From Akkermansia muciniphila ATCC BAA-835 (GTDB lineage Bacteria; Verrucomicrobiota; Verrucomicrobiia; Verrucomicrobiales; Akkermansiaceae): a stretch of DNA of 32,000 nt. Below the pieces are notes generated by a model. The model was given only the letters and a program-made list of their open reading frames with translations, ran no database searches and was not told where the DNA came from. The first letter of the stretch is position 1. Every line of letters starts with the position of its first letter. Location of the stretch: the NCBI RefSeq assembly GCF_000020225.1, contig NC_010655.1:1020001-1052000 (forward strand). The letters run 5' to 3'. Of this stretch, positions 2,968 through 12,238 are shown one piece after another. Position numbers and translations under genes: made by a program.

Positions 2968-4438
2968 GATTGTTGATGGTTGGTATGACTATCGTAAAAA
3001 CGGTATGGCCCGGAACGCTCTCCAGGCGGATGCGGCCGCCGTAGCTGTCCACAATGCGCCGGACGATGGTGAGCCCCAGCCCCAGGCCGAAGGAAAGACC
3101 TTTCTTTTTGGTAGTGAAGTTGGGACGGAAAATTTTTTCATGCAGGTCCTTTGGGACGCCGGGGCCATTGTCTGTGACGGAGACCAGAATTTCACGGGTG
3201 GTATGGGATGTCTGGTCCTTGCTGCTGATTTTTTCCACCCGGCATTCTACGTGGATGGAAGGGTTGGGGGTATTTTCTATTTTCAGCGCGTCGCAGGCGT
3301 TTTGAAGCAGGTTGATCCAAATTTGAACGAGCTCCGTCATATCTGCGAAGATGCCGGGCACGGAGTCTCTGGGAGGCAGGACCATTTCAAAATCAACGCC
3401 TCGCAGACTGGACTTGACCAGAGCAACAGCTTCCGTAAGGGAGTCCGTCACGTTTACGCCTTCTTCCCGTCTGGTGTTGCCTCCTCCCAGCAGGCGAACG
3501 GAACGGACAATGGCTGTAGCATGCCTGACAGCCAGTTTCATATCGTGCAGGTCGTGTCCCAATTCCCAATAAGGGAGGTTTTGTTCCAGCTGGCTGAGGA
3601 ATGGCTTGTTCAGCAGCTCCGGCTGATTCTGTATGTCCGGAATCAGGGCCAGGGCCTTGGCCACGTCCTGGGAAAGCCCGTAATTTTTTTCAAACTGGCG
3701 CGCCAGCCTGCGCTGTTCGGAAGTGGATGAGGAGGAAGCCCCTTCCAACCCTTTGTTGTACAGGGTGTAGCGGAAGGCGTTTTCCTGGCGGAACATGTTG
3801 TCCAGGGTTTCCAGAACAAAGTCTGTTTTACGGGACAGGACTCCCAGGGAATTGTTGAGCTCATGGGCTATTCCAGCGGATAATTGCCCCAGGGTGGCGG
3901 CCATTTCAGAACGGTGGAGCATCCGCAGCGCTTCTTCCTTTTCCGCAGTGCGGTCAAAGACGCGGGTATTGCGCGCCGCCAGTTCATGGACAATGGCGGG
4001 AACAAACTGTTCCAGGAGCGTGCCGTAGTGTTCCACGTCCACGGCAGGGGTGGCGGTGTCGATATAGGCCAGTTCCAAATCAGTTTCCGCAATGAGATCG
4101 GAGGAGCTGCGGAACCATCCGGAAAAGAAACTCTGCACTCCCAAATAGTCTCCGGGACCGGCCCGGAACGCCTTGTAGATTTTGTGGGAAGTGGAAGCTG
4201 TTTCCGGGTCTTCTTTAACGACGTGGCGGTAGGAAACCACGCTGCCGGATAAAATCAGGTAAAGCCTTTTGTTCTGTTCCCCCTGGCGGACGACGCTGTT
4301 TCCCCTGCTGATGGTAATAATGCGGTCCGGATCGGAGAAGTACGCCAGATTGATGCGTTTTAGTTTTTTCTGGAATTCTTCCTGTTCAATGATCATAGGG
4401 CGCTTTTCCCGTTGATGTTGGCCATGCCGGGGCAACAT
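2954..4438 (-). CDS. Cytoplasmic sensor histidine kinase with an N-terminal cyclic-nucleotide-binding-like domain
   Basis: No TM segments. cNMP-like beta-barrel (..RGNSVVRQGEQNKRLYLILSGSV..GDYLGVQSFF..RSSS..). H-box GIAHELNNSLGVL, N-box LLQNACDAL, G1 DNGPGV, G2 GLGLGL. An alternative start MIIEQEEF lies at 4396. Confidence 0.85.
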   Translation of the reverse strand: MLPRHGQHQREKRPMIIEQEEFQKKLKRINLAYFSDPDRIITISRGNSVVRQGEQNKRLYLILSGSVVSYRHVVKEDPETASTSHKIYKAFRAGPGDYLGVQSFFSGWFRSSSDLIAETDLELAYIDTATPAVDVEHYGTLLEQFVPAIVHELAARNTRVFDRTAEKEEALRMLHRSEMAATLGQLSAGIAHELNNSLGVLSRKTDFVLETLDNMFRQENAFRYTLYNKGLEGASSSSTSEQRRLARQFEKNYGLSQDVAKALALIPDIQNQPELLNKPFLSQLEQNLPYWELGHDLHDMKLAVRHATAIVRSVRLLGGGNTRREEGVNVTDSLTEAVALVKSSLRGVDFEMVLPPRDSVPGIFADMTELVQIWINLLQNACDALKIENTPNPSIHVECRVEKISSKDQTSHTTREILVSVTDNGPGVPKDLHEKIFRPNFTTKKKGLSFGLGLGLTIVRRIVDSYGGRIRLESVPGHTVFTIVIPTINNHGKN

Positions 4439-6281: not shown

Positions 6282-7034
6282 TTATGTCAGAGGGGACGGC
6301 TGCCGTTTCCCGGAGCTGGAGCCGGGAGCTTTCTCCGTGATGGGAAAATTGCGCAACCCTATGGGGATATGCGTGTTTAGCAGAGATAAGTCAATCATCC
6401 GTTCGGGAGCGCCGATTTGGCCGAGTGTTTCCTCTGTATTAAAAAAATTCTGAAGGTAGTAGGTTCCTCTATAGCCGCGCGACGTCAAATCCCCGCTGAT
6501 CTGGTTGATTTCCTTTTCCCCGAGAAGGCCGGAGTGGATTGTCGTTCGAACCTCAAACGGGAAATTTCTGTTGATCAGATAATCCAGCGTTTGAGTGAAG
6601 CAGGGGAATAAGTCCGGACGCCCGGTAATGGAGCCGAACAGTTTTTCCGGCGCTTTGTAATCCAGGGCAATATAATCGCAAAGCCCTTCCTCCACCAGCG
6701 TTTTCACCACGCCGGGCCGGGTGCCGTTGGTGTCTATTTTGACTGCGAAGCCAAGCTGCCGTATATTGCGGCAGATAGGGATAAGGTCGGGACACAGCGT
6801 GCACTCGCCTCCGGACAGAACCACCCCATCCAGAAATCCCACCCGATCTCTGAGAAAATCAAGATAGTCCGTCCGGTCTCCGGCAGGAGAATCCGTTCCC
6901 CTGACCAGGGAGACGTTGTAACAGTACTGACAAAACAAATTACAGCCTCTCAGCCAGAAGATGCAGGCCACCTTATTTGGAAAATCCAGCAAGGTGAGCG
7001 GCGTGATGTCTGCTATGCCCCGACCCGTTCCCAT
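6282..7034 (-). CDS. nrdG: Anaerobic ribonucleoside-triphosphate reductase activating protein (radical SAM)
   Basis: CNLFCQYCYN is the CX3CX2C radical-SAM cluster motif, GGECTL is also present, and the gene lies immediately downstream of nrdD. Confidence 0.85.
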   Translation of the reverse strand: MGTGRGIADITPLTLLDFPNKVACIFWLRGCNLFCQYCYNVSLVRGTDSPAGDRTDYLDFLRDRVGFLDGVVLSGGECTLCPDLIPICRNIRQLGFAVKIDTNGTRPGVVKTLVEEGLCDYIALDYKAPEKLFGSITGRPDLFPCFTQTLDYLINRNFPFEVRTTIHSGLLGEKEINQISGDLTSRGYRGTYYLQNFFNTEETLGQIGAPERMIDLSLLNTHIPIGLRNFPITEKAPGSSSGKRQPSPLT

Positions 7035-7060: not shown

Positions 7061-7255
7061 TTATCGCGGCTGTTCCGTTTGGGCGGAGCAGGAGCAGGGG
7101 CGGCCCGGTTCCACGAAGTGGACGCGGTCATGGAACTCGCCCTGTTTGCCGGCGTTGAAAGTTTCTACAGGGCGGTGATAGCCCATGACGCGCGTGTAAA
7201 CGGTGCAGCGGGTCCGGTCCTGTGCGTATTTGCTTAATATTTCCTGTTTGGTCAT
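7061..7255 (-). CDS. Free-standing glycyl-radical domain of class III RNR (NrdD C-terminal module as a separate 64-aa ORF)
   Basis: TVYTRVMGYHRPVETFNAGKQGEFHDRVHF matches the conserved NrdD C-terminus (RVxGY radical glycine, then WN/FNxGKxxEfxxR). The ORF is in the same frame as nrdD, separated by TAA plus 17 sense codons. Confidence 0.7.
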   Translation of the reverse strand: MTKQEILSKYAQDRTRCTVYTRVMGYHRPVETFNAGKQGEFHDRVHFVEPGRPCSCSAQTEQPR

Positions 7256-7306
7256 TGTCGTATTAATGGTTGGGTTTGAAGTCGGGAGCCTATTGGAAAA
7301 GGGATT

Positions 7307-9403
7307 TTATTCATGCCTGTGGATGTGGAGCAGCTCCTCATCGCAGAAGGGGCAGTATTCGTGCTCCCCGCGCAGATAGCCGTGCTTCTCGCAAACGGAA
7401 AAGAGCGGGGTGACGGTGAGGTACGGCATGCGGAAGCGGGTCAGCACTTTGCGGACAATGTCCCGGCAGGCTTCCGGGGAGCTGATGGCTTCGTTCATGT
7501 ACATGTGGAAGACGGTTCCTCCCGTGTAGCAGCATTGAAGTTCATCCTGAAGCTGGAGCGCCCGGAACAGATCACTTGTGTGGTCCACGGGAAGCTGGGA
7601 GCTGTTCGTGTAATAACGCTGCCCCACGGGGCCGGCCTGGATGATGTCAGGATAGCGTTTCTGGTCTTCGCGGGCGAAGCGGTGCGTGGTGCCTTCCGCG
7701 GGCGTGGCTTCCAGGTTGTACAGGTTGCCGGTTTCCTCCTGGTACTCCTGCATGCGCAAGCGGATGAATTCCAGGATCTCTTCAGCAAAGGCCCTGCCTT
7801 CTTCAGAGGTAATGTCCATCGTATCGTTGGAGAAATTGCGCAACAGCTCGTTCATGCCGTTGACGCCGATGGTGGAGAAATGGTTGCGGAAGGTGGGCAG
7901 GTAGCGTTTGGTGTAGGGGTACAGGCCGCGGTCATACATTTCCTGAACGAAGGCCCTTTTCTTTTCCAGGCAGGATTTGGCCAGGTCCAGCAGTTCTCCC
8001 AGCCTGGCGAACAGGGCCTCCCGGTTTTGCTTGAACAGGTAGCCCAGCCGGGCCAGGTTGATGGTCACTACGCCGATGGAGCCGGTCATTTCCGCGGAGC
8101 CGAAGAGACCGCCGCCGCGTTTGAGCAGTTCCCGCAGGTCCAGCTGGAGGCGGCAGCACATGGAACGCACGGCATCCGGCTTGTAGGCCCGTTCGTCAGG
8201 CACGCGTTCCCCGTGTTCATTGACGGTGTACTGGCTGCCGATGAAGTTCTGGAAGTAAGAGGAACCGATTTTGGCGGCGTTTTCAAACAGGAGAGGCACG
8301 TTTTCCCCTTCCCAGTCAAAGTCTTCCGTGATGTTGACGGTGGGGATGGGGAAGGTGAAGGGCTGTCCGGTGCTGTCCCCTTCCGTGAGAACTTCGTAAA
8401 AGGCCTTGTTGATCAGGTTCATTTCCTTCTGGAAATGCTTGTAGGTCAGTTCCGTCAGCTTGTTTGCCCCGCGTTCCCTCGCCAGGGCGAGCAGGTTCGC
8501 GTCTTCTATTCCTTCAAAGAGGTGTTCCCCTCCGCTGAAGGGGGCCTGATCCCGCAGGTCGCGCGGCACAGTCCAGTCGATCGTGACATTGGTAAAGGGA
8601 GATTGCCCCCAGCGCGAGGGTACGTTCAGGTTGTAGACAAAACTGCGGATGTCTTTCTTGATGCGGGGGAAGTCCGTCTGGTCCTTAAAAACGTAGGGCG
8701 CCAGGAAGGTGTCAAAGGAGCTGAAGGCCTGGGCGCCGGCCCATTCGCTTTGCAGAATGCCCAGAAAGTTCGCCATCTGGCCCAGGGCTTCCCGGAAGTG
8801 GCGGGGCGGCCTGCTGTTCACGCGGCTGCGCACGCCGTTGAATCCTTCATTGAGCAGGTTGCGGAGGCTCCATCCGGCGCAGTATCCGGTCAGGCAATCC
8901 AGGTCATGGATGTGGTAATCCCCTTCCCGGTGCGCGGCTCCTTCCCGTGCGGAGTAAACCTGGTCCAGCCAATAGTTGGCGATCACCTTGCCCGCCGTGT
9001 TGTTGATGAGCCCCGCATTGGAATACGTGGTATTGGAGTTGGCAGCAATGCGCCAGTCGCTTTGCCCGATATATTCCTCTACCGTCTGCTTGCAGTCCAC
9101 ATAGGTATTGCCGGAATAAAGGCCGCCAAGCTGTTCGCGCTGCATTTTGTGCAGGAAACGGTAGGTGATGAAGGCCTTGGCCGTGTCAAAATATCCGGAA
9201 CGGAACAGGGCGCGTTCAATCATGTCCTGAATCTCTTCCACATGCGCACTGTCCTGATGGCTCAGCTTGGCTTCCACCTCTTCATAGATGGAACGGTTGT
9301 AGGCGGTCCCGGAACTGTGGAAGGCTTTTCTAATGGCCTCTTCAATCTTATAGCCCTGGTATTGCTCCTTTTTCCCGGAACGTTTGATGATGCTTGTTGC
9401 CAT
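7307..9403 (-). CDS. nrdD: Anaerobic (class III) ribonucleoside-triphosphate reductase catalytic body, lacking the glycyl-radical tail
   Basis: N-terminal ATP-cone (MATSIIKRSGKKEQYQGYKIEEAIRKAF..), finger-loop SMCCRLQLD, and C-terminal Zn-ribbon CEKH..CPFC. The ORF-track N-terminal extension to 9691 overlaps the riboswitch and is rejected. Start taken at the ATG at 9403. Confidence 0.9.
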   Translation of the reverse strand: MATSIIKRSGKKEQYQGYKIEEAIRKAFHSSGTAYNRSIYEEVEAKLSHQDSAHVEEIQDMIERALFRSGYFDTAKAFITYRFLHKMQREQLGGLYSGNTYVDCKQTVEEYIGQSDWRIAANSNTTYSNAGLINNTAGKVIANYWLDQVYSAREGAAHREGDYHIHDLDCLTGYCAGWSLRNLLNEGFNGVRSRVNSRPPRHFREALGQMANFLGILQSEWAGAQAFSSFDTFLAPYVFKDQTDFPRIKKDIRSFVYNLNVPSRWGQSPFTNVTIDWTVPRDLRDQAPFSGGEHLFEGIEDANLLALARERGANKLTELTYKHFQKEMNLINKAFYEVLTEGDSTGQPFTFPIPTVNITEDFDWEGENVPLLFENAAKIGSSYFQNFIGSQYTVNEHGERVPDERAYKPDAVRSMCCRLQLDLRELLKRGGGLFGSAEMTGSIGVVTINLARLGYLFKQNREALFARLGELLDLAKSCLEKKRAFVQEMYDRGLYPYTKRYLPTFRNHFSTIGVNGMNELLRNFSNDTMDITSEEGRAFAEEILEFIRLRMQEYQEETGNLYNLEATPAEGTTHRFAREDQKRYPDIIQAGPVGQRYYTNSSQLPVDHTSDLFRALQLQDELQCCYTGGTVFHMYMNEAISSPEACRDIVRKVLTRFRMPYLTVTPLFSVCEKHGYLRGEHEYCPFCDEELLHIHRHE

Positions 9404-9554
9404 GATGGGTGTCTCGCTTGGAAAGGGTGGTGACCGCTCATCCGCGAGCCTGGGCAAAAGCCTGGAAAAACCATAGGCAGGGGCCAACCGCATGCGTGCA
9501 TTCCCGGAAAGGGGGGCATGCCGAAGACCTGTGCGTATGTTCATCCTGTCCGCG

Positions 9555-9730
9555 GGATGGGAATACGGCAGCATCAGGTCGTCTTCTGGCTTCCGGTGCG
9601 ACATGTGATGGGGACTTCCCGGCTGCCTGGGCAGCCAGTGTCCGGTCCATCGTCTACCGGTTACAGCGGCGCGTCCGCGACGGATTTTCACCGTCTTCCG
9701 TTACCTGCGCTGGAACGCAATGAACCACAG
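9555..9730 (-). promoter_or_regulatory. Adenosylcobalamin (B12) riboswitch in the nrdD leader
   Basis: The minus strand reads ..GGAAGACGGTGAAAATCCGTCGCGGACGCGCCGCTGTAACC..GACACTGGCTGCCCAGGCAGCCGGGAAGTCC..GAAGCCAGAAGACGACCTGATGC.. This matches the conserved GGTGnnAAnnCC / GCC-CTGTAA core, the CACTG..GGGAAG element and the B12 box. Confidence 0.85.
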
Positions 9731-9952
9731 AAAGAGACCTCCCGCAAGAAAAATGTATAAATAATGTGTTAAATAATTATTCATATGCTATATATAGTAT
9801 ATAACGGTAGAAAAATGATTGATAACACAGCCTTCTTTTCCGTCATGGCACCATATATGCCCTTGCGCCCCTTTCCCGGTCTGGAGGAGCGCGGGAAAAG
9901 AAGAATTCTTGTTGCAAGAAAATTCCAGCCTTCTTTTCCCGTATAATATAAC

Positions 9953-12187
9953 ATGCGTTTCTTTGCCTTTTCAAAAAATGGATGGAAAAAATACTTTCTG
10001 TTGCCGGTCCTTTCCATGCTTTCCGCAGGAACTTCCGTTTCCGGGGCTTCCGCAGACTGGAATGAAAAGACCATCCGGGACAATCTTCAGCTGGTGGCGG
10101 AATGGCAGGCGAAGCATCCCAAAAAACGTTCGCCGCTGCATTGGACTTACGGTGCTTTTTATTCCGGCCTGGTGCAATATGGCCTGTCCGTTCCGGAAGG
10201 GCCGGGGCTGCCGTTGCTGAGAAAAGCGGGAGAAGAGCAGGGGTGGAAGACCCTGAACCGGCATTATCATGCGGACGACCATGCCGTGGGGCATGCCTGG
10301 ATGGAGATGGCGATGGAAGACGGCAATCCCGCCGCAGCTGAAAAGATCCGCGCCGTGCTGGACAAGGTGATGAACCGGCCTTCCTCCGCTTCCCTCCAAT
10401 TCCTGACTCCGGGCTGCCAGGACCGCTGGAGCTGGTCGGACGCCCTGTTTATGTCCCCTCCCGTGTTCGTGAAACTGGCGGCCTATACCGGAGACCGCCG
10501 TTATCTGGAGTTTATGGATAGGGAATACAAGCTTACCTGCGACTATCTTTTTGACCGGGAGGAGGGCCTGTTTTTCCGGGATTCCCGCTATTTTACCGTT
10601 CCGGCGGCAAATGGGAAAAAGATGTTCTGGAGCCGGGGCAACGGCTGGGTGATTGCCGGATTGCCTCTTATTTTGCAGGACATGCCTGCGGACTGGCCTT
10701 CCCGCCCCTTTTATGAAGACTTGCTTAAACGTCTGGCGGCAGCCCTGAAAAAATGCCAGTCGCCCGACGGTTCCTGGCATGCGAGCCTGCTGGATCCGGA
10801 CGAACCTCCCTTGAAAGAGATGAGCGGCACCCTCTTTATCATGTACGGGATGCTGTGGGGAGTGAACCAGGGATATCTGGATGCGGATGAATACCTTCCC
10901 TCCATCTGTAAGGCCTGGAAGGCCGCCTGTGATGCGGTCAGCAAGGAGGGCGCGCTGGGATGGGTACAGCCTATTGCGGACAAGCCGGGCCATTATTCCG
11001 GGAAAGATACGGAGGTGTACGGCGCAGGGGCCTACCTGATGGCCGGGAGTGAGTTGCGTAAATATGTCATTGACCGGGATCATCCGCAGAAGAAGACCGT
11101 GACCGTTACGAATCCCCTGGGCAGGTTCCGCCCTGCTGAGACCGTGTCGGTTCCATGGCCGTCCGGAGGTTCCGGTGATGCCGCCGGCCTTCGCGTTTTT
11201 GACGTCCGTCACGGACGTGTTATCCCGCATCAGCTGGCGGATACGGATGGTGACGGAACAACGGATACCCTTTTGTTCCAGAGCAATTTCCGGCCCGGAA
11301 CGGTTCGTGATTTCTGGATTCTGGAGAATTCCTGCCTGGGCGAAGCTCCTTCCGCGGATGTCTGTTTCAGCCGTCCGGTACCGGAGCGGCTGGATGATTT
11401 CGCATGGGAAAATGATCTTACGGCGCACCGGATTTACGGTCCGGCCGTCGCCAGGCCTGCCCCTGAGGGAGAGGGCCTGGTTTCCAGTGGGACGGATGTA
11501 TGGAGCAAGCGCGCGGGCACTCCCGTTATCAATGAATTTTACAAACGGGGGGATTACCACCGGGATCACGGTCGGGGACTGGATATGTACAATGTAGGTC
11601 CGGGGCGGGGCTGCGGCGGCATTGCCGTGTTCAGGGATGGAAAACCGCATGTGTCCGGAAACTGGGCCAGCGCCCGGACATTGTACAATGGCCCGGTCCA
11701 GACCGCTTTTGAGGTGGTTTATGCACCGTGGGACATTGGCGGCGGCGTGCGTGTGGCGGAGACGCGGAGGGTGACGCTGGATGCGGGAAACCGTTTCTCC
11801 AAAGTCCGCAGCGTCTTGAACGTCCGGGGGGCTGAAACGGTGAAGGCCGGTGTGGGAATGGATACCGGAAAGCGCAGAAATGATTATGAAGCGGTTATGG
11901 AGGACCGGGAGTCCGGCGGCCTGATGACCGCATGGAGCAGGCCCCGGAAGGATGACGGATGCCTGGGAACCGCCGTAATCGTGCCCTGGGTTCCGGAAGG
12001 CCGTGCGGTGGATGCGGAAGGCTGTACCTACTTGCTCAGGAAGGTCGCGAACGGAGAACCCTTTGAATGGTACATGGGGGCGGTTTGGGACAAGGCTTCT
12101 CCCATTCGGTCCGCTGCCGGCTGGGAAGCGGAGGCTCGCCGTGTCCGGGAGTGCATCGGCCATCCACTGCAAGTCCGGGTGCGGTAG
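9953..12187 (+). CDS. Secreted GH105/GH88-type unsaturated glycuronyl hydrolase fused to a DUF4861-like C-terminal domain
   Basis: Signal peptide (KKYFLLPVLSMLSAGTSVSGASA). Hydrolase motifs HADDHAVGHAW, WSWSDALFMSPP and FWSRGNGW. The second half (about 370 aa, ..FDVRHGRVIPHQLADTDGDG..ENDLTAHRIYGP..) resembles DUF4861. Confidence 0.8.
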   Translation: MRFFAFSKNGWKKYFLLPVLSMLSAGTSVSGASADWNEKTIRDNLQLVAEWQAKHPKKRSPLHWTYGAFYSGLVQYGLSVPEGPGLPLLRKAGEEQGWKTLNRHYHADDHAVGHAWMEMAMEDGNPAAAEKIRAVLDKVMNRPSSASLQFLTPGCQDRWSWSDALFMSPPVFVKLAAYTGDRRYLEFMDREYKLTCDYLFDREEGLFFRDSRYFTVPAANGKKMFWSRGNGWVIAGLPLILQDMPADWPSRPFYEDLLKRLAAALKKCQSPDGSWHASLLDPDEPPLKEMSGTLFIMYGMLWGVNQGYLDADEYLPSICKAWKAACDAVSKEGALGWVQPIADKPGHYSGKDTEVYGAGAYLMAGSELRKYVIDRDHPQKKTVTVTNPLGRFRPAETVSVPWPSGGSGDAAGLRVFDVRHGRVIPHQLADTDGDGTTDTLLFQSNFRPGTVRDFWILENSCLGEAPSADVCFSRPVPERLDDFAWENDLTAHRIYGPAVARPAPEGEGLVSSGTDVWSKRAGTPVINEFYKRGDYHRDHGRGLDMYNVGPGRGCGGIAVFRDGKPHVSGNWASARTLYNGPVQTAFEVVYAPWDIGGGVRVAETRRVTLDAGNRFSKVRSVLNVRGAETVKAGVGMDTGKRRNDYEAVMEDRESGGLMTAWSRPRKDDGCLGTAVIVPWVPEGRAVDAEGCTYLLRKVANGEPFEWYMGAVWDKASPIRSAAGWEAEARRVRECIGHPLQVRVR

Positions 12188-12238
12188 GAGCCGCCGCATC
12201 CTGTTGTTTCTCGCGGAGCGCGTGGCGGCTTCCTCTTG

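Follow-up and report, generated by a model that had tools for sequence, protein, structure and literature searches.

Can a class III ribonucleotide reductase (RNR) function when the glycine that bears its radical is encoded by a gene of its own? This question is raised by the nrdD locus of Akkermansia muciniphila ATCC BAA-835, analysed here within a 32,000-nucleotide (nt) stretch of contig NC_010655.1 (the window; coordinates given without a locus name are positions in it, and all parts of the nrdD operon lie on its minus strand). Ribonucleotide reduction is essential, and in the textbook picture a class III RNR is a single chain, assembled as an alpha2 dimer, with its own glycyl radical. In the window, the RV.GY radical glycine was not found at the C-terminus of the main NrdD chain (the body); the motif was on the next open reading frame (ORF). 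Sequence comparison shows a genuine two-polypeptide form of this well-known enzyme, conserved and widespread, and the Akkermansia locus most probably (about 0.85) encodes a functional class III RNR whose radical would reside on an obligate small subunit.

The body gene (7307..9403) extends from an ATG at 9403 to a TAA at 7309-7307 and encodes 698 amino acids (aa) comprising an ATP-cone, a barrel and a Zn-ribbon, without a glycyl-radical domain; its C-terminus reads ..CEKHGYLRGEHEYCPFCDEELLHIHRHE*. It is followed by a 51-nt spacer (7256..7306), stop-free and in frame with the body (translation NPFSNRLPTSNPTINTT), and then by the gene of the putative small glycyl-radical subunit (7061..7255; ATG 7255-7253, TAA 7063-7061; Amuc_0861, ACD04694.1, B2UQF9). 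The 64-aa product of the latter, MTKQEILSKYAQDRTRCTVYTRVMGYHRPVETFNAGKQGEFHDRVHFVEPGRPCSCSAQTEQPR, displays the RVMGY motif within TVYTRVMGYHRPVETFNAGKQGEFHDR, with the radical Gly25 at 7181-7183, the invariant Cys17 at 7205-7207 and a C-terminal CSC at 7088-7096. The initial annotation of this DNA had described the TAA, the 17 stop-free codons, the ATG and the 64-aa radical ORF, and all of these coordinates were correct. The third gene, nrdG (6282..7034), starts 26 nt downstream of the small-gene stop and codes for a radical S-adenosylmethionine activase of 250 aa (TIGR02495 NrdG2, 173.7 bits for a cutoff of 131.15; Radical_SAM PF04055). No terminator-like site was detected between the three genes on the minus strand, and Amuc_0860-0862 have been reported as one expressed cluster.

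Body and small ORF together made up a complete NrdD by two profiles. With Pfam NRDD (PF13597), the body covered positions 2-536 of 562 (E 3.8e-160) and the 64-aa ORF positions 532-562 (E 2.4e-8). With NCBIfam NF006126, the body (1064.6 bits for a cutoff of 548) covered positions 2-651 of 684 and the small ORF positions 649-682. Since the two products abut in both profiles, the break is placed precisely at the boundary that separates the Zn-ribbon from the glycyl-radical loop. As read from the sequence, the catalytic motifs of the body are intact: the ATP-cone (residues 4-86, 9146..9394; PF03477, 60.5 bits, E 2.4e-16), the Asn-x-Asn flap (NSN, residues 122-124), the MCCR finger loop with the thiyl-radical cysteine (residues 415-418, 8150..8161) and, at the body end, the predicted Zn-ribbon C671-x2-H674 ... 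C684-x2-C687 (7343..7393). The double-cysteine MCCR motif is known for class III RNRs (PMC9669993). The ribbon ligands were read as three Cys and one His (CEKH) instead of the four Cys expected, and they aligned with the CxxC/H...CxxC of fused NrdDs.

The small protein belongs to a sizeable and well-conserved family. A search retrieved 2222 homologues, the best 120 of which were all 41-100 aa long, and the identical sequence was present on at least 1000 public contigs (NCBI, JGI, ENA, Logan). An alignment of 26 diverse small proteins from several phyla contained 19 invariant columns, among them Cys17, the T21-R-V-M-G25-Y26 stretch, R28 and P29. The ratio of nonsynonymous to synonymous substitution rates (dN/dS) of the conserved core was 0-0.09 (Nei-Gojobori, compared with other Akkermansia lineages), and the small gene is under purifying selection. 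Its product is labelled 'hypothetical', 'uncharacterized' or with the name of the full enzyme in databases, and neither Pfam nor NCBIfam holds a dedicated model for it. A Pfam scan at E <= 0.01 returned NRDD only, without a match to Gly_radical (PF01228); a PDB sequence search returned no NrdD (one chance match at E 0.013) and tblastn against phage genomes returned no match.

The same organization was recovered far beyond Akkermansia. One genome per GTDB species was scanned, giving more than 600 matches, of which the best 80 were kept together with six earlier loci. The resulting 86 loci were distributed over six phyla (Verrucomicrobiota, Campylobacterota, Bacteroidota, Betaproteobacteria, Omnitrophota and Lentisphaeria). 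Carriers in Verrucomicrobiota were Akkermansia and other Akkermansiaceae; one metagenome-assembled genome (MAG) labelled only 'PVC group', Lentisphaeria and Omnitrophota were carriers as well. Campylobacterota were represented by Campylobacter, Arcobacter/Aliarcobacter, Poseidonibacter, Sulfurospirillum, Sulfurimonas, Sulfuricurvum, Hydrogenimonas and Helicobacteraceae; Bacteroidota by Flavobacterium, Algoriphagus, Fontibacter, Saprospiraceae and Chitinophagaceae; and Betaproteobacteria by Vogesella, Aquabacterium, Rubrivivax and Roseateles. The split occurred at the same point in all 86 loci. The initial proposal that the junction is a remodelled gene boundary and not a fresh nonsense mutation is strongly supported.

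Additional residues at the junction further distinguished split from fused forms. From the last Zn-ribbon Cys to the radical Gly, the closest fused relatives displayed 12 residues (...CPxCxxxTEVYTRVVGY...), whereas C687 and Gly25 in the window are 54 positions apart, stop included (the 53 counted initially was one short). Alignment with the fused relatives attributed about 24-26 extra residues to the split forms; such a linker insertion had been anticipated. In the window, these consist of an 11-aa body tail (DEELLHIHRHE) and about 16 aa at the N-terminus of the small protein, and the added helices probably hold the two chains together. A split intein with trans-splicing was also considered and rejected, given the shortness of the 11-aa tail and of the ~14 aa that precede the conserved core of the small protein and the lack of any intein domain in Pfam scans.

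Proximity to the activase gene was a second recurrent feature. The distance from the small-gene stop to the nrdG start ranged from -71 to +209 nt in 82 of the 86 loci, and the small gene adjoined nrdG even where it was separated from the body. This is exemplified by Campylobacter fetus subsp. testudinum, where the body (689 aa, 66% identical to that of the window and ending at the same residue) is followed by a 454-aa NAMPT/NAPRTase-family gene (L004-L006:3626-4990) and then by a 53-aa radical protein whose gene overlaps nrdG. Likewise, genes for PAC_bac (proteasome-assembly-chaperone-like) and NifU_N-like proteins lie between the two parts in an Arcobacteraceae MAG (L086:6145-6970) and in an unclassified MAG (L055:6171-6981), where the NifU-like gene may be related to iron-sulphur (Fe-S) supply for NrdG. 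In nine Campylobacter MAG loci, the small gene was accompanied by nrdG, and no body gene was present within a distance of 7 kb. Identities of body and small protein to their window counterparts co-varied (r = 0.70, n=68, for loci that are phylogenetically non-independent), which is consistent with both parts travelling together.

On the side of the body, all of the best 120 homologues stopped behind the Zn-ribbon and lacked a Gly motif; where entries were longer, their N-termini had been over-called. Because neither the body nor its 120 closest homologues carry a radical domain, the small protein would be an obligate subunit and not a spare. Two candidate natural fusions were rejected. The C-terminus of P0125 (780 aa) is unrelated to the body tail or to the small protein and has no Gly motif, and P0140 joins a window-type N-terminus to a fused-type C-terminus foreign to the split clade. 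Both are probably assembly artefacts, and entries of this kind could mislead automated surveys. An exhaustive body profile search among 1.84 billion cluster representatives gave 5129 matches, and 136 of the best 150 were classifiable: 57 were fused and 79 ended at most 60 residues past the Zn-ribbon without a Gly motif, a number that may include some contig-end truncations. In a rough neighbour-joining tree, the window sequence fell into a coherent clade of about 30 representatives, all split and sister to fused sequences, and other domain-less clusters were scattered elsewhere.

By homology to the solved fused enzymes, a working scheme can be proposed. The body would supply the ATP-cone, the ten-stranded barrel with its MCCR finger loop and the Zn-ribbon, and the 64-aa protein the glycine loop (RVMG25Y) and the C-terminal wrap corresponding to the last ~35 residues of an ordinary NrdD. 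The genes for body, small subunit and NrdG, presumably co-transcribed behind a B12 riboswitch (see below), would be translated separately. NrdG, with S-adenosylmethionine, would install the radical by abstracting hydrogen from Gly25; the loop of the small protein would then insert into the body barrel beside Cys417 and start catalysis, which would proceed as in other MCCR-type NrdDs. Two observations weigh against this scheme. No Shine-Dalgarno sequence was found before the small ORF in the window, although body and nrdG are also devoid of one. Furthermore, AlphaFold2 modelled the small protein alone (26 homologues) with low confidence only (predicted local distance difference test score, pLDDT, of 64), as a helix (3-14), a hairpin (20-23/26-29) with Gly25 at its tip and a second helix (30-42).

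Canonical NrdDs (E. coli, phage T4, Thermotoga maritima PDB 4COI, Prevotella copri PDB 8P23) belong to the same NF006126/PF13597 family and share with the split form the ATP-cone, barrel, finger-loop cysteines, a Zn-ribbon sequence motif, RV.GY motif and adjacent NrdG. The split form differs by the location of the glycine and of the ~35 following residues on a separate 64-aa chain, by its ~24-26 extra junction residues and by one predicted Zn ligand being His instead of Cys. Other RNRs are known in pieces. Class II NrdJa/NrdJb of Pseudomonas aeruginosa likewise form a catalytic subunit from two adjacent genes whose products must assemble, and NrdA of phage Aeh1 is split by a homing endonuclease gene. 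Yet, these cases concern another class and another break point, and their split-off fragment bears no stored radical. Class I RNRs also keep a stable radical on a separate, smaller docking subunit (beta, alongside alpha), but without homology: theirs is a tyrosyl or metal centre, generated with O2 within a ferritin-like protein, that acts by long-distance transfer, whereas the glycyl loop would here enter the barrel directly. Small chains that bind a glycyl-radical catalytic subunit exist in BSS (beta/gamma), HPAD (gamma) and MASS (beta/gamma/delta), but these are Fe-S or rubredoxin-like and carry no glycyl radical (PMC13450708).

A partial parallel is offered by two autonomous glycyl-radical cofactors, the 'spare parts' of pyruvate formate-lyase (PFL) known as GrcA/YfiD in E. 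coli and as Y06I in phage T4. These are also small, free-standing radical-domain proteins completing a barrel without a working domain (PMC8683613; PMC13450708). Each of them, like the small protein, is presumably charged by the cognate activase. The analogy with GrcA had been drawn together with the initial suggestion of a two-polypeptide enzyme. The latter fits all comparative data, and the former holds in part only: GrcA backs up an enzyme with its own domain, whereas the Akkermansia-type body never has one and would depend on its small subunit. GrcA is furthermore a protein of ~127 aa with a disordered N-terminus and a domain of the PFL type (Pfam Gly_radical), while the Akkermansia small protein matches NRDD only and belongs to a family of 50-75 aa.

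Detachable radical domains apparently arose more than once in class III RNRs. When metagenomes were scanned starting from another domain-less clade, 77 fused and three split loci (L087-L089) were obtained. In L087 (3605-4114) and L088, a long heptad-like, coiled-coil-like helix closes the body, and the next ORF starts with a similar helix followed by the radical domain and a glutaredoxin-like domain. In L089 (3579-3997), which displays a CPYEH ribbon, a 59-aa radical protein starts at the body stop codon and is followed by a thioredoxin-fold ORF. These are apparently two further independent architectures, bringing the count to at least three. As an observation on fused forms, some NrdDs were seen to carry a glutaredoxin/thioredoxin-like domain C-terminal to the radical domain.

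The back-up arrangement in which the partner enzyme retains its own radical domain was found only in the unrelated locus L096. There, an ORF of 96 aa (3632-3922) begins 4 nt behind a complete fused nrdD; it encodes a CxxC...CxxC ribbon of its own and a radical domain sharing 56% identity with that of the adjacent NrdD. Its family comprised 208 matches, the best 120 of which were all 85-118 aa; named members came from Candidatus Nealsonbacteria, Paceibacterota and Portnoybacteria (Patescibacteria). Five Cys and an EVYSRIVGY.RP core were invariant. The genes were usually not beside nrdD, and an oxidative-stress context was recorded for three of six proteins looked up. The clusters read Fur - radical protein - rubrerythrin - desulfoferrodoxin (L172 and L173; the same without the Fur gene in L174) or Fur - radical protein - encapsulated-ferritin-like - superoxide dismutase (L169 and L170). 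In two of the remaining three contexts the neighbours were a prfB-like release-factor gene and ftsEX; in the third, the neighbour was a flavoprotein gene. These Patescibacteria proteins are good candidates for genuine spare parts of class III RNR in the manner of GrcA, and closer functional analogues of GrcA than the Akkermansia small protein. Their position in Fur/rubrerythrin/superoxide operons is an indication that detachable radical domains have a role related to oxygen.

What, then, would be gained by the split? Oxygen cleaves glycyl-radical enzymes at the radical glycine (PMC8683613; PMC13450708), so that with a detachable subunit only 7 kDa would be lost. We infer that the small subunit may be swappable after such damage. 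That the benefit lies in oxygen destroying a cheap 7-kDa subunit and sparing the 80-kDa body is a speculative proposal, to which we give somewhat less than even odds. It draws on the repeated evolution of detachable domains, on the Patescibacteria stress operons and on expression data for Amuc_0861. RNA-seq reads map to this gene (baseMean 740), and between mid and late growth in high-GlcNAc (N-acetylglucosamine) medium its level changes about 5-fold (log2 fold change 2.35, adjusted P 3e-48), whereas body (-0.13) and nrdG (+0.40) barely change in the same comparison (PMC11480725 and its supplement). Such a change, restricted to Amuc_0861, could reflect processing or stability of its transcript that differs from the rest of the operon.

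In its full form, the exchange reading holds that small subunits of the Akkermansia/Campylobacter/Flavobacterium type are charged by NrdG off the enzyme, dock and are swapped after cleavage at Gly25, and that the Patescibacteria genes provide spare parts for full-length NrdDs; it is put forward tentatively, as falling a little short of an even chance. One point speaks against the oxygen rationale: E. coli and Lactococcus, well-studied facultative or aerotolerant organisms, have a fused NrdD, and life near oxygen therefore does not demand a split.

The strongest competitor to exchange is neutral gene fission, whereby the two chains would assemble permanently and behave like a fused NrdD, with neither exchange nor oxygen benefit. 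We regard it as a serious possibility of roughly one chance in three. The split clade covers very different lifestyles, fused and split sequences interleave in the rough tree, and other split RNRs, such as class II NrdJa/NrdJb, have no known special function. In addition, Cys-rich tails occur in the small protein of 27 of 68 distinct loci, so that they do not constitute a universal extra feature. Yet, mere fission would not readily explain why the small gene is kept beside the activase gene even when apart from the body, why at least three split architectures arose independently, why radical-domain genes of Patescibacteria sit in Fur-rubrerythrin-superoxide reductase/dismutase operons, or why the Amuc_0861 transcript level varies independently of its neighbours.

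A second alternative would make the small protein a GrcA-like spare for another, full-length NrdD encoded elsewhere, the adjacent body being inactive. The pairing of a full NrdD with an extra radical-domain gene does exist in L096. However, the 120 closest body homologues all lack the radical domain and are under conservation, and body, small gene and nrdG form one operon. Moreover, no second nrdD was seen in the list of long ORFs of the window, whose members were not individually scanned, the rest of the genome being outside the search. We consider this alternative very unlikely.

Programmed read-through of the TAA, giving a 780-aa NrdD alone or beside the two separate products, had been suggested by the in-frame position of the small ORF behind 17 stop-free codons. 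The weight first put on this single in-frame TAA proved misplaced: such a spacer has a chance expectation of ~0.44 x 1/3 = 0.15, and the relatives do not conserve the frame. In L001, a sister Akkermansia with 96% body identity, the spacer is 49 nt long, the small ORF is out of frame and the body frame meets a second TAA. More generally, comparison of orthologous loci showed the split point to be kept, but neither spacer nor frame. Among the 77 loci with the body upstream, the spacer ranged from -71 nt (overlap) to +1522 nt, and body and small ORF had a common frame in 23, corresponding to the one third expected by chance. ATGA stop/start overlaps were found in ten of the 77, overlaps of 17-26 nt characterized the Bacteroidota split loci, and ten loci of the C. 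concisus group displayed a 9-nt spacer with an AAGGAG ribosome-binding site. Whole genes may even intervene, as does the 454-aa gene of C. fetus. The only 780-aa database protein is P0125, which is not a fusion and has no Gly motif (see above). Read-through is thus refuted as a conserved mechanism and left with a probability close to nil. Long in-frame ORFs upstream of the small gene in L021, L040 and L069 were examined as possible fusions and rejected as chance open frames: in L021 the body and the small gene actually meet in an ATGA overlap, and in L040 and L069 they are separated by 37 and 40 nt.

An incipient pseudogene tolerated through a B12-dependent RNR, as the upstream cobalamin riboswitch could suggest, or an assembly or sequencing error, both raised initially, is refuted by the identical sequence on at least 1000 contigs of many sources, the conservation of the arrangement across six phyla, the dN/dS of 0-0.09, the intact catalytic motifs and the transcription of the genes.

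The riboswitch itself, noticed from the start, was confirmed as a cobalamin aptamer in the 5' leader of the operon (9560..9757, minus strand; Rfam RF00174, 75.4 bits for a gathering score of 31.5, full length 1-189). It implies that the operon is repressed when cobalamin is available; such control is established for B12-independent isoenzymes where the same organism possesses a B12-dependent counterpart. Of the 12 split loci scanned, only the window and L001 (1623-1804) contained the riboswitch; it was absent from the ten others, which belong to other Akkermansia/Akkermansiaceae, Campylobacterota, Bacteroidota, Betaproteobacteria and Omnitrophota. A riboswitch was therefore rejected as a general feature of the split system (2/12 loci). 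Being confined, in this set of loci, to A. muciniphila and its closest relative, it reflects local regulation.

So far, only two spare parts have been validated, both for PFL (Andorfer et al. 2021, PMC8683613). A review of June 2026 likewise reports them for formate lyases only, considers other family members as 'yet to be determined' and lists no radical-bearing small subunit (PMC13450708). Neither a split NrdD nor a non-PFL spare part was described in the openly searchable full-text literature, including RNR phylogenies (Burnim et al. 2022), RNRdb, recent NrdD cryo-electron microscopy and GrcA work, subscription-only literature being outside the search; the split class II NrdJa/NrdJb are discussed in these works. 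Split systems would therefore provide abundant, natural and easily cloned test cases for the spare-part question beyond PFL, and a natural NrdG substrate of 64 aa would simplify mechanistic work on radical installation. If the exchange reading is true, this would be the first spare-part or repair system for a glycyl-radical enzyme other than PFL. The split also suggests a way that may allow microaerophiles and anaerobes of the gut mucosa, among them the probiotic candidate A. muciniphila, to keep the cost of oxygen damage low. At a practical level, annotation should change, as RNR surveys would score the truncated body as defective.

Several minor observations were made along the way. The Cys-rich C-terminal tails mentioned above read PCSCS in the window (7064-7096) and CGCGC, CC or GCGCS elsewhere (L007-L086); in three cases it is the body, and not the small subunit, that bears such a tail. 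The tails recall a metal site or the C-terminal Cys pairs that act as redox shuttles in class I/II RNRs; with 27 of 68 distinct loci, they were rejected as a universal feature of the split system. In L042 and L071 (~6300-6930, minus strand), Campylobacter MAG loci where the small gene and nrdG lack a nearby body, a divergent upstream ORF of ~186-200 aa ends in a GGCGCGC tail and, judged by eye, looks like a thiol peroxidase. Many NrdD representatives (P0241-P0390) are 1000-1900 aa long and match the 698-aa query in two to five separate stretches, as would be expected if the body gene held one to several inteins.

Finally, two long antisense frames were noted in the window. One (7313-9433, plus strand, 706 aa) lies opposite nrdD and the other (9971-12199, minus strand, 742 aa) opposite a 744-aa ORF at 9953-12187, whose L001 homologue matches Glyco_hydro_88/DUF4861. 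Both are probably shadow ORFs of a GC-rich genome and not genes.

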